Of a stretch of 27,750 nt of DNA, positions 5,126-13,221 are shown one piece after another. Numbering within the stretch: position 1 is the first letter of the stretch; the number at the start of each line of letters is the position of its first letter. The notes under the pieces were generated by a model. That model was not told where the DNA came from. It ran no database searches and worked only from the letters and a program-made list of their open reading frames with translations. The position numbers were made by a program, and so were the translations under genes. The stretch is from a virus: the UHGV virus genome UHGV-0085994. One strand, given 5' to 3'.

Positions 5126-6610
5126 TCATTCATTAAGCCATGCCAGAGCTTCATCAACCTGCGCTTCGTCTTCGACGCTAAGCACTTCATCCTGGGGAAC
5201 ATAATCCGCCAGCATAGCGAAACAATATGTATCCCAATGGTCTGGTGAGTGCAGGTTGAGTTTTTTCTTCATATCCTCCTTACTCATCACCTTCCATTGA
5301 CCTGCGGAGTTAATCCCTACAGGGATTTTCGACGCTTCCTCAATAGTTTCATTACCCTTATCCAGTCTCATACGACCAGATTTTACGGCCTCTGCGGCTT
5401 GAACGTTGGCATAAGCACGTTTATCAAAGTACAGGCTCTTATCTTCACGGCTATGCATCTTTTTACCCCAGCGTATACGCTGTACGGTAATACCATAATA
5501 CTCGTACATCAGATCCGCCGTTGCTTTACCCAGGCCATCGCCGTCTATCGCTATGGTGATATTTGGGAATCGCTCAGGATTACATTCTGCGAAAATTTTG
5601 GCGGCAAGCTGCGTTTCTGTAACGTCTGTGTATTCCAGCATTCGATAGTTGATTACACGGCGTTTATTTCGCTGGCCGGACACCATCATGATATTGATAA
5701 CGGACTTATCCCGTCCCGTACCACCAGCAACGTCCACACATGCAAGCCAGCCCCATCCTTTGGCAATCTTGACTTTCCGCCGCGTCGCACGTTCAACCTC
5801 ATCACGTCCAAGAAGGAAGCCATCCTGTGATTTAGGGAATAGTCCGCGTACCTTAATCATGTACATAGGGTTATCACGCCCGCCGTACTCCGCCAGCTTC
5901 ATTTTGATAAATGCTGGCGTTACCAGCGGTGATTCCTCACTGTTAAGCGTGATCGCCGTATAAACGCCATCAGGGTTACCAGGACGCTTGGCCAGTTTAT
6001 GGTGAGTATCGTAGAAATAGCCGCTTGGGCGTGTAGGCTGTGACAGTAATAAGATGCGGTTATCCTGTCCGGTAAGAGCACCAGTGATGATACCGAAAGC
6101 TCTATCACTGACACCGGAGGCTTCATCGATAATATACAGAAGATGATCTGCGTGTTCACCGGCGAGAGCTTCTTCACTTCCCAGACGAAAGCCCTTCGGT
6201 ACTACAGTCCATACACCTTTACCAGTAACCTCATATAAAGCGGTTTCTGTCAGAACAAAATAATCAGCAAGCCATGGAAAACGGCTGGTGGCAGTAGCCC
6301 AGTTTATCTTGATGTACTTGAATATACCGGTCATTACCTGCTGAATTTTGTTCGCAACGATAATGGCACGGGCACCGGGATACATGATTATGAACAACAT
6401 GATCATGATAGAAGTCATGTCTGATTTCCCGGTACCGTGGCCAGACGAAACAGATGTCTTGCTACCCTGTTCCTGCACAGACTCAATAATCAGATCCTGC
6501 TGCCAGGTAGGTGTTTTGCCGAACAAAACATCAGCGGCCGCAATCCAGTCATAACGATATAGCGCCACCAGCTCGCGCCAACGTGGATCCGTTACGCAAC
6601 TTCTGGCCAT
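5126..6610 (-). CDS. pacB: terminase large subunit (PacB-like)
   Basis: 494 aa, the length of P1 PacB as I recall it; Walker A-like SGHGTGKS; directly downstream of the small-terminase-like ORF. Confidence 0.8.
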
Positions 6611-7278
6611 TAATCATCATCCCCGTATAGCTTGCGGGTAACTTCTTCGTCTTCCTCCTCGTCTTCGTCCAGGTCTTGTTCCAGCCATGGGTCGTTTGAT
6701 ACACCTTCAGTATCAACATCTCCATAACCGCCTGTATCAACGATATCGGCGATTTCTTCCCTACGCTGCTCAATCCACAATGCGGCATCGGCGCGGCGGT
6801 TGGCGGCCCGTTCTCGCGCGATTTTATCCAGATCTTCAAGTGATGGAGCGCCAGATGCTGTTTGGTTTTCCTCATCATCGGTATTGGTCTTAGGAGCACG
6901 CAGATCGGCTTTGATTTGCTCCAGCATCAGGGGCGGCACTTTCCCGCCATGCGCCTCGATGAATTCAGCTGCTTCCAGCACTGACCAGTTATTTTCACGC
7001 TTTCGTTCGTATGCCAGCTTAACAATGCCAGCTTGCCCCATAGACAAAGCGTGCTTTTCCGCCTCCCGGCTTTCTTTTCGATAGTTATTCCGGATGCTGT
7101 AAATGGTGTTGATCAGGCTGCTTATCTGCGCGGAACAGCTGTTTAGCATGCTCGCGATACGGTATTCAGGCGGAGTACCTTCATCATCGTCTTTTTGCTG
7201 ATCGCGCATTTCCTGCACCAGGCGAATACACGTAAACATCGCGCTTATCGACATCCAGATGCGGGTATTCCTTTTCAA
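6610..7278 (-). CDS. terminase small subunit-like (PacA-like), downstream frame; acidic C-terminal tail
   Basis: 222-aa ORF overlapping the upstream 73-aa ORF in a different frame; C-terminus DEDEEEDEE typical of small terminase; stop overlaps pacB start. Confidence 0.45.
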
Positions 7279-7405
7279 GGATTGCTGCGAGTTCTTTCGC
7301 TGATAGAAGAGATTTAGTGCGGATCATGTAATCCGCAATCTCGTACGATGTTATTCGTGAGTGATTTATTTCCATGAAGTGGCGTCCCTGCCAGTTAAGT
7401 AACAT
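7184..7405 (-). CDS. terminase small subunit-like, upstream frame (probable N-terminal part of a split pacA-like gene)
   Basis: 73-aa ORF with an HTH-like segment; overlaps 6610..7278 by 95 nt in another frame; C1 operator-like site just upstream. Confidence 0.35.
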
Positions 7406-7475
7406 CCTGTCACCTACTGATTAGCCCATGTCAACTAATCAACGTGGAATATAATACCCTCGATTAAAGAAATAG

Positions 7476-7492
7476 CAATACATTAGAGCAAT
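7476..7492 (-). promoter_or_regulatory. C1 operator-like site upstream of the pacA-like gene (14/17)
   Basis: Plus strand CAATACATTAGAGCAAT. Confidence 0.4.
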
Positions 7493-7493
7493 T

Positions 7494-8537
7494 TTATCTA
7501 ACACTCGACGAGTAACTTGTGATAGCGCCGACTCCAAGCGCGTAATCAAAGAACAATCGTTGATGCATCGCCAGCCTACCGTGCGTCTTCTCCCAATTAT
7601 CGCGGTCACGCTCAATATCACGCTGGCATGACTGGCACAGAGGAATTGCGTAAATGTCATGCGCGCATAATCGACTATGACGAACGATATAAGGCGTAAT
7701 GTAAGCGCCAGCTCCCGCCGCTCCACACCCACAGCATGGACGGGAAGCAACAAAGTCCATGTACTCAGGTAATTTTAGCGATTGCAGTTTTGGTATTTTG
7801 AAATGCGCCATGCCAGGGTCGGAGTCAACATCCACAGGGCATACTTTTGCACGCATCGGCGCGGCGCGTTCTTCCATCATCTGAACATATGCTGTAGCGC
7901 GATCGTCATACGGGCGAATATCCGCCTCTTTCAGAGGTCCGCTATCCTGCGTTGCGGCTTTCATCTTATTTATTGATATACGGCAAACTTCTTCCGGCAT
8001 CAGGTGCATCATGTTGCGCATGAAAGCCCACCAGCACAGTTCTTGAATACTTAAATCATGGCCATCTGAAAGCCCCATTTCCTGACGGGCGACATCCAGT
8101 ATCCAGTTAACGCGATTATTATGCAGCGTTTCTTTCAGCTCATTAAAACCACGCATCCGGTAATGGTTATCGTGATGCCAGCACAACAACACCGCGCTAT
8201 TGTCTCGTTCTGCGTGGACAATATGGTTGTCACACCAGCTACGATCTGCGGCCTGGCATTGCCCCTCTTTCCTGCGCAACCACGCCACCAGCGCGTCAAT
8301 TCCACCAATACGGCGAAACAGTTCATCGCTGTTAAAAAACGGCTGCAACGCCTCATTTGTTGCCATAGTTTGCTCGGAAACAACGAGGCCGTCGTCCATG
8401 TGCTCGATTAACTCACGCGGCACCGGCTCCATAATAAATTTACGGCCAGCCTCCACCAGCTTTCTGACTTCCTGATCCACTTTAAATGTGGCGACGCCAA
8501 GCTCTTTTTGTACAAAGGGAGTAATTACGGCTTTCAC
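7494..8537 (-). CDS. hypothetical Cys/His-rich protein (possible HNH-like or zinc-binding nuclease next to terminase)
   Basis: 347 aa; motifs CWHHDNH and CCGCG...HSRLCAHD...CQSCQ; no domain confidently recognised. Confidence 0.55.
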
Positions 8538-8564
8538 ATCACACCTTTCATCACTGATTGGGCT

Positions 8565-8765
8565 TTATCTGCTGCCCGGCATTCTCTGTTTAAGCACAAC
8601 CATTTCCTGACGGCATAACACAGCAATAGCGGTCCTGGCACCAATTTGCTTACCAACCAGGTATTGCTTTACCTCGCGGCGACTCACGCCATCAAGAAGC
8701 ATCTTTAACGCTTCACGGGACAACTTGTTGTATTTACGTGCCATTAATCTACTCCGCGGAACCAT
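8565..8765 (-). CDS. small protein with possible LuxR/GerE-like helix-turn-helix (66 aa)
   Basis: [32 protein letters not shown] pattern; overlaps doc 3' end by 17 nt. Confidence 0.35.
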
Positions 8766-9129
8766 ACAATCTACGTAACGTGTCGGCGACAGAAGATACA
8801 GATATCTCTCCGGTCGCAGCCCCTACGGTAAGGTCTGCCAGTTCTGGTGAATCAAATACCTGCACCCCGTTACGGCGTAGAAATAGCAGCGCACTGTTTA
8901 GCGCGGTACGCTTATTGGCATCATTGAATATATGCCCTCTCGCAGTAGCCACCAGGTAGGTGGCGGAGACTTCGAAAAGGTCGGTGATATCTTCGTAGGC
9001 AACTCTGGCCTGAACTCTCCCGATAATGGCCTCTGCCCTACCCGGATCTGACATTCCCGGCAGGCCGCCGTAGCGGCTTATATTCGCATCATGAAGCGCA
9101 ATAAGTTCTTCCGGTGATATATGCCTCAT
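8749..9129 (-). CDS. doc: Doc toxin (Fic-fold kinase, death on curing)
   Basis: 126 aa; near-identical to P1 Doc as recalled; Fic motif HIFNDANKR. Confidence 0.95.
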
Positions 9130-9350
9130 TATCGGTTAACCAGTTCCTTGTTGGTGGAGTCCAGAGTGTCAAACAGGGATGCAAATTCAGCATCCAGCGC
9201 CGCTTTTTTGTAGGCTTCGAAAGTAGCCTTGCTGACAATTACTGCTGGCTCACGGCCTCTGCGGGTGATTTCAACCTCTTCCCCGGCCTCAACATTGTTG
9301 AGCACTTCAGAAAGGTTGCCGCGCGCGGTACGGAAGTTAATGGATTGCAT
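9129..9350 (-). CDS. phd: Phd antitoxin (prevents host death)
   Basis: 73 aa from the internal Met ([13 protein letters not shown]...), matching P1 Phd; the ORF track starts two codons earlier. Confidence 0.95.
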
Positions 9351-9355
9351 AAACA

Positions 9356-9385
9356 CCTCGTGTACTCGTTATGTGTACACAATTA
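9356..9385 (-). promoter_or_regulatory. phd-doc promoter/operator region with GTGTAC palindromes
   Basis: GTGTAC at 9360-9365 and GTGTACAC at 9373-9380 just upstream of phd; Phd/Doc autoregulate via palindromic sites. Confidence 0.45.
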
Positions 9386-9422
9386 TAAACTTCACAGGCA
9401 TAAAGCACCAGCACTTTGCAGC

Positions 9423-9812
9423 TTAAATCACCGGACAATCATCAAATTCCCCACTTCGGGCATCATTAATGACATGAGTGATCACACCAAACACAGCATT
9501 ACTGCCCGTGCATCCATCGTCATCTACTGGTAACGCCTCTTTCTTCCCGGTGCTTAAATCCTCCAGATGCTGACGTGGATACTTCCGGTATCTTTTTACG
9601 CGATATTCCCCATCCAGAGCGCATACAAGCAGAGAACCATCAACCGGGGTAAGTGAGGAATCAACCACCAGCAATGCACCCTGTAATATTCCCTCACGAT
9701 GATGACTATCAGCTGCCCTCATGAAGTAGGTCGCTGAAGGATGTCTAATTATCTGCTGATCAAGAGAAATACGGCTCTCAGCATAATCCGCCGCAGGAGA
9801 AGGGAAGCCCAT
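9423..9812 (-). CDS. humD: HumD (UmuD'-like SOS mutagenesis protein homolog)
   Basis: 129 aa, UmuD C-terminal-domain-like; LexA box immediately upstream. Confidence 0.8.
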   Translation of the reverse strand: MGFPSPAADYAESRISLDQQIIRHPSATYFMRAADSHHREGILQGALLVVDSSLTPVDGSLLVCALDGEYRVKRYRKYPRQHLEDLSTGKKEALPVDDDGCTGSNAVFGVITHVINDARSGEFDDCPVI

Positions 9813-10513: not shown

Positions 10514-12076
10514 ATGAAAATGACAAGTATTCAACAACGTGCAGAGCTTCATCGTCAAATCTGGCAAATTGCTAACGATGTCAGGGGTTCGGTCGATGGA
10601 TGGGATTTTAAGCAATACGTTCTGGGCGCACTTTTCTACCGTTTTATCAGCGAAAATTTTTCCAGCTATATTGAAGCCGGTGATGACAGTATCTGTTATG
10701 CGAAACTGGATGACAGCGTAATTACTGATGACATTAAAGACGATGCCATCAAAACCAAAGGTTACTTCATCTACCCAAGTCAGCTTTTCTGCAACGTAGC
10801 TGCGAAAGCAAATACCAATGACAGACTGAATGCAGATTTAAACAGTATCTTCGTTGCTATCGAAAGTTCTGCTTACGGTTATCCTTCAGAAGCTGACATC
10901 AAAGGTTTGTTTGCTGATTTCGATACCACCAGTAACCGCCTGGGTAACACCGTTAAAGATAAAAATGCCCGCCTGGCTGCGGTTCTGAAAGGGGTTGAAG
11001 GGTTAAAACTTGGTGACTTCAACGAACATCAGATTGACCTGTTCGGTGATGCCTATGAGTTCCTGATTTCTAACTATGCGGCAAATGCCGGTAAGTCAGG
11101 CGGTGAGTTCTTTACACCGCAGCACGTCTCCAAGCTGATTGCACAACTGGCTATGCACGGGCAGACCAGCGTTAACAAAATCTACGACCCGGCAGCGGGT
11201 TCCGGCTCACTGTTGTTGCAGGCGAAAAAACAGTTTGATAACCACATCATCGAAGAAGGCTTTTTCGGTCAGGAAATCAACCATACGACCTATAACCTGG
11301 CGCGTATGAACATGTTTTTGCACAACATCAACTACGACAAGTTTGATATCAAGCTGGGCAATACGCTGACTGAACCGCACTTCAGAGATGAAAAACCGTT
11401 TGATGCCATCGTTTCTAACCCGCCGTATTCGGTGAAATGGATTGGCAGCGATGACCCGACGCTGATTAACGATGAGCGTTTTGCCCCGGCTGGCGTTCTG
11501 GCCCCCAAATCCAAAGCTGACTTTGCGTTTGTATTACATGCGCTGAACTATCTTTCGGCCAAAGGTCGTGCTGCGATTGTCTGCTTCCCGGGTATTTTTT
11601 ACCGTGGCGGCGCAGAGCAGAAAATCCGTCAGTATCTGGTCGATAATAACTATGTCGAAACCGTAATTTCACTGGCTCCGAACCTGTTCTTTGGCACCAC
11701 CATTGCCGTAAACATTCTGGTTCTGTCCAAACATAAAACGGATACCAACGTTCAGTTTATTGATGCCAGCGAACTGTTCAAAAAAGAGACCAACAACAAT
11801 ATCCTGACCGATGCCCATATCGAACAAATTATGCAGGTATTCACCAGCAAGGAAGATGTTGCTCATCTGGCAAAATCTGTCGCGTTTGAAGCCGTTGTAG
11901 CGAATGACTATAACCTGTCGGTGAGCAGCTATGTAGAATCGAAAGATAACCGCGAAATTATCGATATTGCTGAGCTGAATGCGGAACTGAAAACCACGGT
12001 CAGCAAAATCGACCAGTTGCGCAAAGATATTGATGCGATTGTGGCTGAAATTGAAGGCTGCGAGGTACAGAAATGA
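10514..12076 (+). CDS. hsdM: type I restriction-modification system, DNA methyltransferase subunit HsdM (type IC, EcoR124-like)
   Basis: 520 aa; N6-adenine methyltransferase motif NPPY(SVKW); followed by hsdS with 4-bp overlap. Confidence 0.95.
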
Positions 12077-13221
12077 GCGAGTTGAGTTATCTGGAAAAAT
12101 TGCTGGATGGAGTTAAGGTTGAGTGGAAAACACTAGAGAAAGTGCTTAAACGAACTAAAGGCACAAAAATAACCGCTGGGCAGATGAAAGCTCTTCACAA
12201 AGATAATGCGCCGCTTAAAATTTTTGCAGGGGGAAAAACAGTAGCCTTTGTTGACTTTAAAGATATTCCAGAGAAAGATATTAATAGAGAGCCATCGATC
12301 ATTGTTAAATCCAGAGGTATTATCGAATTCGAGTATTACGATAAACCATTCTCTCACAAAAATGAGATGTGGTCATATCACTCAAATAATGATGCGATAA
12401 GCATAAAGTATATTTATTACTTCCTAAAAATAAATGAAGGATATTTCCAGAAAATTGGGGGTAAAATGCAAATGCCACAAATTGCAACTCCTGATACAGA
12501 TAAGTTTGAAGTTCCAATCCCTTGCCCGGATAATCCGGAAAAATCCCTTGCCATCCAGTCTGAAATCGTTCGGATTCTGGATAAATTTACTGCAGTTACC
12601 GCTGAGCTTACCGCTGAGCTTAACATGCGTAAAAAACAGTACAACTACTATCGCGACCAGTTACTGAATCTTGAGGGCAGGGAAAATACTCGAGAAATGA
12701 GGATAGGTGATATTTATGATTTTCAGTATGGAACAGGCAATACAATTCCTAAATCTGGAGGGCAATATCCTGTTTATGGTAGCAACGGGATTGTAGGCTC
12801 CCATGACAAATATAACAGCGAAGACTCGCCTGTTATTGGTCATATAGGTGCTTACGCAGGAATCGTTAACTGGGGCCAAGGTAAGCATTTTGTTACATAC
12901 AACGGAGTTATTTGTAGGCACAAATCGAAGGAAGTTCTTCAAAAATACGCCTACTATTTATTACTTTTACAAGATTTCGGTTCAAAATCTAATAGTGCAT
13001 CACAGCCTTTTGTTTCATATAACATATTAAATGCTCCTATTGTTTTGGTTCCCCCTTTACAAGAGCAAGCTCGTATCGTCGCAATACTCGATAAATTCGA
13101 CACACTGACCAACTCCATCACCGAAGGTCTCCCGCGTGAAATCGAGTTGCGCCAGAAACAATACGAGTACTATCGTGATTTACTGTTCAGTTTCCCAAAA
13201 CCTGAAACAGCCAGTAATTAA
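12073..13221 (+). CDS. hsdS: type I R-M specificity subunit HsdS (two target-recognition domains; central TAELTAEL repeat)
   Basis: 382 aa; conserved repeats LDKF..(Q/K)QYxYYRD after each TRD; central TAEL x2 as in EcoR124I-type subunits. Confidence 0.95.
12598..12621 (+). repeat. 12-bp tandem direct repeat ACCGCTGAGCTT x2 encoding TAEL-TAEL in hsdS
   Basis: Directly visible; in the EcoR124 family the copy number of this repeat sets the spacer length of the recognition sequence. Confidence 0.75.

Follow-up and report, generated by a model that had tools for sequence, protein, structure and literature searches.

What is encoded between doc and the terminase genes of the viral genome UHGV-0085994, and do these products act in DNA packaging or in late gene control? 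Two minus-strand open reading frames, of 347 and 66 codons, occupy this interval in the 27,750-nt stretch of DNA that was analysed (hereafter, the window). The original prediction read the larger one as a possible metal-binding nuclease or HNH-like protein encoded immediately upstream of the terminase, and the smaller one as a LuxR/GerE-like helix-turn-helix (HTH) protein that could regulate late genes. Both reading frames (7494-8537 and 8565-8765) are indeed present, and they are conserved genes rather than chance ORFs. The window is a P1-like phage-plasmid whose positions 7300-8900 are, by megablast, 97-99% identical in DNA to P1, P7, RCS47, SJ46 and other punaviruses, the features annotated beneath this match being PdcB, PdcA, Doc and Lpa. 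The 347-aa ORF is pdcB (P1 gp107), and its product is 96-99% identical over 347 aa to the PdcB proteins of P1, RCS47 and vB_EcoM-673R5; the small ORF is pdcA (P1 gp106). In P7 the same genes are named Upf95.7 and Fdc. The gene order around pdcB, with PdcB between doc/pdcA and lpa, is shared by P1 and 17 other loci, and the P1 record runs humD-phd-doc-pdcA-pdcB-[Olpa/Plpa]-lpa-[LPpac]-pacA (containing pac)-pacB. While pdcA and pdcB are intact in both P1 and the window, a 934-bp deletion downstream of pdcB is found only in the latter. The homology to P1 is clear and leads to proteins that are themselves uncharacterised, so that it does not by itself speak against a nuclease or a regulatory function. 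The literature that was covered treats pdcA and pdcB as non-essential and assigns no function to either. The pair of ORFs is therefore an ordinary finding, namely two already annotated P1 genes, and what is added here are refinements of their annotation and not a new system. The features of the locus are as follows:

8752-8755, minus strand: GGAG ribosome-binding site, read from the sequence, 7 nt upstream of the second ATG (8744) of pdcA.
8565-8744, minus strand: pdcA, coding for the probable 59-aa form; when read as 66 aa it reaches 8765 and overlaps doc (8749-9129).
7494-8537, minus strand: pdcB coding sequence, 347 aa, GTG start; orthologue of P1 gp107.
7476-7492, minus strand: Olpa, C1 operator (ATTGCTCTAATGTATTG), P1 annotation transferred by alignment.
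7478-7473 (-35) and 7456-7451 (-10), minus strand: Plpa, with hexamers TTGCTA and TATTAT, from a promoter scan.
7184-7405, minus strand: truncated lpa, made of Lpa residues 1-57 and an out-of-frame tail; it matches positions 1-45 of 131 of BPP1_LPA (E 2.6e-19).

Contrary to what had been proposed, the two ORFs do not overlap each other: a 27-nt spacer separates them, and it is the 66-aa reading of pdcA that overlaps, by 17 nt, the 3' end of doc. Olpa, which begins two bases past the stop codon of pdcB, shares sequence with the -35 hexamer of Plpa. The latter was the only minus-strand promoter in the scan, and no terminator was detected between doc and pdcB, counts in both scans not being above those of shuffled controls. 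A search of Rfam returned no RNA family for positions 7000-9600, PADLOC gave no defence-system match for PdcA or PdcB at E up to 0.1, and neither protein was assigned to a family in NCBIfam. Elsewhere in the window, positions 10514-13221 (plus strand) carry hsdM (520 aa) and hsdS (382 aa) of a type I restriction-modification system in place of the P1 lxr, hot and upf genes; the resulting junction of hsd with phd-doc-pdcA also exists in phage vB_EcoM-673R5 and in the IncF plasmid pKF3-140.

PdcB belongs to the YdfU family. Against Pfam DUF968 (PF06147), which has a gathering threshold of 27.8 bits, the protein scores 167.1 bits (E 4.7e-49), its residues 161-337 covering profile positions 1-171 of 171, and PHROG 96, named 'HNH endonuclease', matches it over its full length (E 3e-127). 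Within the His-Me finger superfamily, DUF968 and DUF1364/YbcO constitute group 7 (PMC5714182). An exhaustive profile search with E values up to 0.001 retrieved 799 cluster representatives, about 35 of which share the ~330-350-aa architecture of PdcB. Structure prediction with AlphaFold2 yielded two beta-beta-alpha units, that is, the HNH-like fold that had been anticipated, and the fold of the model matches other HNH domains. A Foldseek search of the model against the PDB gave nothing significant, the best weak matches being HNH proteins, and the PdcB sequence had zero matches in the PDB at E up to 10. Taken together, alignment, model and fold search demonstrate that PdcB is a DUF968/YdfU-family protein composed of three parts: an N-terminal stretch of ~60 residues that is poorly modelled, a central beta-beta-alpha domain with a putative zinc staple and a C-terminal His-Me finger. 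When, to look for an internal duplication, the central and the C-terminal domains were aligned to each other with hhalign, the alignment was topologically sensible (E 0.003, probability 10.6%). As a separate observation, the N-terminal ~160-260 residues of YdfU-type proteins also open longer proteins of 400-807 aa (P0186, P0231, P0234, P0195 and P0196), which may represent fused genes or errors of gene calling in E. coli prophages. The segments of pdcB that encode the two folded domains and the first of its motifs are the following:

8163-8258, minus strand: PdcB codons 94-125, with C94, C102 and C119-W-H-H-D-N-H125 (the first motif), read from the sequence.
7953-8357, minus strand: PdcB central domain (~aa 61-195), AlphaFold2 pLDDT ~88-94.
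7518-7772, minus strand: degenerate His-Me finger of PdcB (aa 256-340), from alignments and model.

All the Cys/His motifs on which a nuclease had been proposed are found in the protein: CWHHDNH corresponds to residues 119-125, CCGCG to 268-272, HSRLCAHD to 287-294 and CQSCQ to 301-305. The first of them lies in the central domain, whose beta-beta-alpha unit is modelled as two strands (106-111, 114-119) and a helix (120-129). Among 134 relatives, C119 is universal and C94 is found in 127, whereas H and C alternate at position 102 (71 H, 57 C) and at position 122 (87 H, 47 C). This alternation, together with the fixed cysteines at 94 and 119, makes these four positions look like zinc ligands, so that CWHHDNH with C94 and C102 looks like a structural zinc site formed by C94, C102, C119 and H122. 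W120, D123, N124, N141, E166, W169 and W170 are further conserved in the central domain of the 134 relatives, and a conserved histidine is absent from its first strand. Up to residue 160, PdcB has no match to a Pfam model or to a PDB sequence, and when a profile of the central domain was searched against Pfam and the PDB, the matches were at chance level, S100-A9 being an example.

The closest parallels to this architecture are the YdfU-type DUF968 proteins of lambdoid phages and prophages (Qin YdfU, Stx phages, SfV, mEp390). Like PdcB, they have ~330-350 aa in a three-part arrangement, carry the central zinc motif CQ...LCW(H)[H/C]DN along with an ELCWW helix, and are encoded by the last early gene before the late regulator. 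Unlike PdcB, with which they share 24-31% identity, they keep an HH pair and a C-x-x-[C/H]-H...H helix, and the gene downstream is Q instead of lpa. YbcO/DUF1364 (PDB 3g27) and P1 Ref (PDB 3plw) are single-domain proteins of ~80-190 aa with 10-14% identity to PdcB; PdcB has ~250 extra residues upstream and has lost the catalytic histidines. P1 Ref has been shown experimentally to be a RecA-dependent HNH nuclease.

The fate of these histidines is what distinguishes the C-terminal domain of PdcB from those of its relatives. In the model, residues 280-284 and 297-301 of this unit form strands, and residues 302-310 a helix. C268, C271, C301 and C304, which belong to the 'CCGCG...CAHD...CQSCQ' stretch, make up a predicted four-cysteine zinc site flanking the hairpin; they are kept in the P1 clade, as is the H293-D294 pair. 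The lambdoid consensus for the same region reads 'C..CG..ADDPHHIIGHGQGGMxTKAHDxFxIPLCRxx[H/C]HxxLH'. In 133 aligned C-terminal domains, the HH of strand 1, which provides the general base, is present in nearly all relatives outside the P1-type clade. At this site PdcB has Tyr/Ile, corresponding to Y279 or to Y283-I284 depending on the alignment, and in either register it offers zero histidine; a nearby histidine, H287, is not conserved within the P1 clade. The metal-ligand histidine of the helix is also gone, the family pattern C-x-x-[C/H]-H...H being represented in PdcB by C301-Q-S-C304-Q305...E309. Both catalytic histidines are thus replaced in every P1-type sequence, whereas they are kept in more than 100 relatives. 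A profile alignment with the HNH domain of IscB, although weak, puts the HH of the family on the HH of IscB, and D294, which is invariant, on the Asn that braces the hairpin and is the 'N' of HNH. One of the aligned IscB histidines is the residue mutated to inactivate the IscB HNH domain. In agreement with a degenerate domain, when 28 C-terminal domains were scanned singly against Pfam, 20 of the 28 matched HNHc_6, 12 the Ref family, 7 YbcO, 5 HNH_5 and 4 HNH, while the domain encoded in the window matched DUF968 only, and HNHc_6, Ref, YbcO, HNH_5 and HNH were absent from its hits. The original prediction of a metal-binding nuclease or HNH-like fold is therefore borne out for the fold and for the Cys/His clusters (by DUF968, PHROG 96 and AlphaFold2), and not for a working nuclease, since both family catalytic histidines are replaced in P1-type PdcB and the clusters behave as structural zinc ligands.

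The distribution of the loss points to a single event of considerable age. In a neighbour-joining tree, all sequences without the HH form one clade. The P1 type and the D6/L021 type (38% identical) belong to it, as does P0155, and its members are all encoded on P1-like elements of ~90-95 kb. Regarding the third of these lineages, the contig that encodes P0155 (L086/L087) has 94.8 kb and carries Ref-like, hot-like and humD-like genes; the neighbours of the P0155 gene are Ead/Ea22, DUF4752, DUF1382 and a metallophosphatase gene, and lpa is not adjacent to it. After the loss, PdcB has not been left to decay. Within P1 proper its pN/pS ratio is 0.11, next to values of 0.106 (PacA) and 0.09 (Doc); the degenerate C-terminal domain shows the same degree of conservation as the remainder of PdcB when relatives that are 64-70% identical are compared; and in the time for which PdcB has been retained, PacA has fallen to 53% identity. 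The simplest reading of these patterns is a single catalytic loss followed by retention in another role, and PdcB would most likely be a non-catalytic relic of a nin-region nuclease. In lambdoid phages, as synteny shows, the family is a canonical HNH-type protein whose gene closes the early nin-type region, behind RusA and immediately ahead of Q. In this scenario, the ~90-95 kb P1-type phage-plasmid lineage would have lost the strand-1 His pair and the helix His once, after which PdcB would have stayed under purifying selection. Most probably, the protein would no longer cut DNA and would act as an accessory DNA- or protein-binding factor.

The genomic position of pdcB is compatible with such an origin. 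Among 60 lambdoid loci, the antiterminator gene Q (recognised by one of three Pfam families) lies directly downstream of the DUF968 gene in 49, RusA is found upstream in 35, and KilA-N or ANT antirepressor genes are directly upstream in 30, a nin-region arrangement of DUF968 genes that agrees with previous work (PMC5714182). The order PdcB-Lpa-PacA-PacB is maintained even where the identity of PdcB has dropped to 67% or 38%. The gene thus closes the early region, with the late regulator gene (lpa in P1-like elements, Q in lambdoid phages) coming next, and its place is not a terminase-associated one. As pdcB always lies directly before the late activator gene, PdcB could possibly bind DNA structures or a partner at the early-to-late switch. 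Whatever it does, PdcB is dispensable for plaque formation and lysogeny in the laboratory. CRISPRi knock-down of pdcB gave an EOP of 0.68 and was scored as non-essential (PMC10695390), pdcB and pdcA both appear as non-essential in a deletion survey cited in the same paper (PMC10695390), and pdcB::kan phages are viable and form stable lysogens (PMC10067587, PMC10999674). At the same time, pdcB serves as a PCR marker and is one of the 21 genes that are best conserved across P1-like phage-plasmids (PMC9603915).

It has to be considered whether PdcB is instead an active HNH/His-Me endonuclease that uses non-canonical residues to process recombination or replication intermediates in the manner of Rap/NinG and RusA. 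The P1 clade has an invariant H293-D294 pair and also conserves Y283, Q305 and acidic helix residues, a set that may be compatible with a non-canonical active site. The intact zinc site, the membership in DUF968 with its His-Me fold, the strong purifying selection on the protein and the fact that relatives adjoin RusA (PMC5714182) also fit with an active enzyme. However, both of the histidines that define the family in more than 100 relatives are replaced in all P1-type sequences, the only nearby candidate, H287, varies within the clade, and DUF968 is the sole model that the C-terminal domain of the window matches among the HNH models of Pfam, so that a cutting enzyme is unlikely. Searches of the literature on pdcA, pdcB, ydfU and DUF968 yielded no functional study, and no nuclease assay of PdcB or YdfU. 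The reading of PdcB as a non-cutting descendant of a nuclease is preferred here, and the RefSeq label 'HNH endonuclease' seems to overstate the likely capacity of P1 PdcB, in which the fold is kept and the catalytic histidines are gone.

The small ORF poses a different problem, beginning with its extent. Translation of pdcA most likely starts at the second ATG (8744, Met-8), giving a protein of 59 aa rather than 66 aa: a GGAG is placed 7 nt upstream of this codon, just before the doc stop codon (8749-8751), the 59-aa form is the one used in most database entries, and PHROG 3345 covers residues 8-66 of the longer reading. The 98 PdcA relatives retrieved from the database are nearly all called as 59 aa, and all of them are at least 75% identical and come from P1-like DNA. 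The gene was found in 1161 plasmid records, and in 1135 of these at least 80% of its length is covered. The product is strongly basic (pI 11.0, net charge about +9.5), and its AlphaFold2 model (pLDDT 75.6) consists of three helices, the second and the third being joined by a short turn. Constraint on the gene is weak, since its pN/pS of 0.285 is the highest of the eight genes tested and its variable sites are distributed 4/6/6 by codon position. As an observation apart, several database variants of PdcA are frameshifted into a 40-codon frame (window 8534-8656, minus strand), so that the product has 69 aa and its TGA stop codon overlaps the GTG with which pdcB starts; these may be real variants or assembly errors. 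Altogether, PdcA appears to be a very basic three-helix protein of 59 aa under weak constraint.

A functional pairing of pdcA with pdcB was entertained and rejected because each of them occurs without the other nearby. In phage D6, phd-doc-pdcA lies ~5 kb away from the PdcB homologue; two further loci (L018 and L021) have PdcB without phd, doc and pdcA; and the IncF plasmid pKF3-140 contains hsdM/phd-doc-pdcA with the first 114 codons of pdcB only. PdcA appears to travel with phd-doc and not to be a partner of PdcB.

Given the weak constraint, pdcA might be a non-functional spacer ORF that is carried along with the 3' end of the phd-doc module. The absence of an excess of variable sites at third codon positions, the highest pN/pS of the genes tested, the 69-aa frameshifted variants and the lack of homologues in searches outside P1-like DNA would all be expected of such a passenger. 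Against it, the ORF is intact in most of the 1161 plasmid records, it is preceded by a good ribosome-binding site, its pN/pS is below 1 and its predicted structure is coherently helical, features that make a mere spacer rather improbable.

Even less probable is that PdcA is an HTH regulator, either of the late genes, as originally predicted, or, in a weaker version, of phd-doc or pdcB. Its charge and its three helices, with the short turn between the second and the third, are compatible with DNA binding, and its linkage to phd-doc is constant. Nevertheless, the LuxR/GerE-like pattern found no counterpart in any family. With Pfam at E up to 1, PdcA matched Abhydrolase_11 (E 0.12) only, and HTH, LuxR and GerE were absent; with NCBIfam it matched a transposase N-terminal domain (E 0.033) only, and HTH was again absent; and its sequence had only chance-level matches in the PDB. 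The weak selection on the gene, its frameshifted database variants and its score as non-essential in what PMC10695390 relates of the deletion survey also speak against a regulator. As for the late genes, their transcription in P1 is already explained by Lpa, and BPP1_LPA matches the neighbouring truncated ORF at 7184-7405, where the remnant of this late regulator is located, and not PdcA. The preferred view is thus that of a small basic protein belonging to the phd-doc module.

The apparent proximity of pdcB to the terminase genes is explained by the deletion. With respect to P1, the alignment places the 934 missing bp at junction 7233/7234, affecting the ORFs at window positions 7184-7405 and 6610-7278; lpa has lost its last ~93 codons, about two-thirds of the gene, and pacA its first ~189 codons, while LPpac and pac are missing as well. 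The junction was spanned by none of the 655 PLSDB plasmids that match the region. As lpa and pacA are essential in P1 (PMC10695390), the element should be unable to express its late genes or to package DNA. A different deletion, ~208 bp larger (window 7024-7233), exists in a P1-like IMG/VR contig (L005, IMGVR_UViG_2778261417_000008, ~7300-7305); it shares the lpa-side end point at window 7233, which suggests a recurrent break point or a former insertion there. Further along, PacB (window 5126-6610) has two allelic forms in P1-like elements, ~88% and ~99.8% identical to the window protein, and the pS of pacB (0.23) far exceeds the values of the genes around it, a sign of a mosaic boundary close to where pacA meets pacB.

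In P1, pdcB is not immediately upstream of the terminase: Olpa, Plpa, lpa, LPpac and pac separate it from pacA. HNH proteins of the HK97 gp74 type are encoded beside the terminase genes and are needed for DNA cutting. PdcB is like them in being phage-encoded and in its HNH-like fold; it differs in that lpa separates pdcB from pacA and in that pdcB is non-essential (PMC10695390). That PdcB is a nuclease of this kind, aiding PacA/PacB at pac, is very hard to sustain. In its favour are the fold and a distance of less than 900 bp to pacB in the window, but the 934-bp deletion created this proximity, and in P1 lpa, two promoters and pac intervene. Against it, pdcB is dispensable where lpa, pacA and pacB are not (PMC10695390), the viability of pdcB::kan phages points against a packaging role (PMC10067587), relatives precede Q or lpa in the early region and not terminase genes, and the catalytic histidines are missing.

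The explanation as a whole, comprising the identity of pdcA and pdcB, PdcB as the non-cutting relic of a nuclease and PdcA as a basic three-helix protein of the phd-doc module, is given a probability of roughly 0.6. P1 is a workhorse phage, and P1-like phage-plasmids commonly carry resistance genes. For the wider family, the 'CWHHDNH' motif belongs to a previously undescribed predicted zinc domain that is common to YdfU-type prophage proteins. For the P1-type phage-plasmids themselves, the chances are about even that they have long kept a catalytically dead descendant of a lambdoid nin-region HNH nuclease, whose zinc-stabilised binding surfaces, those of the central domain included, would carry its function.
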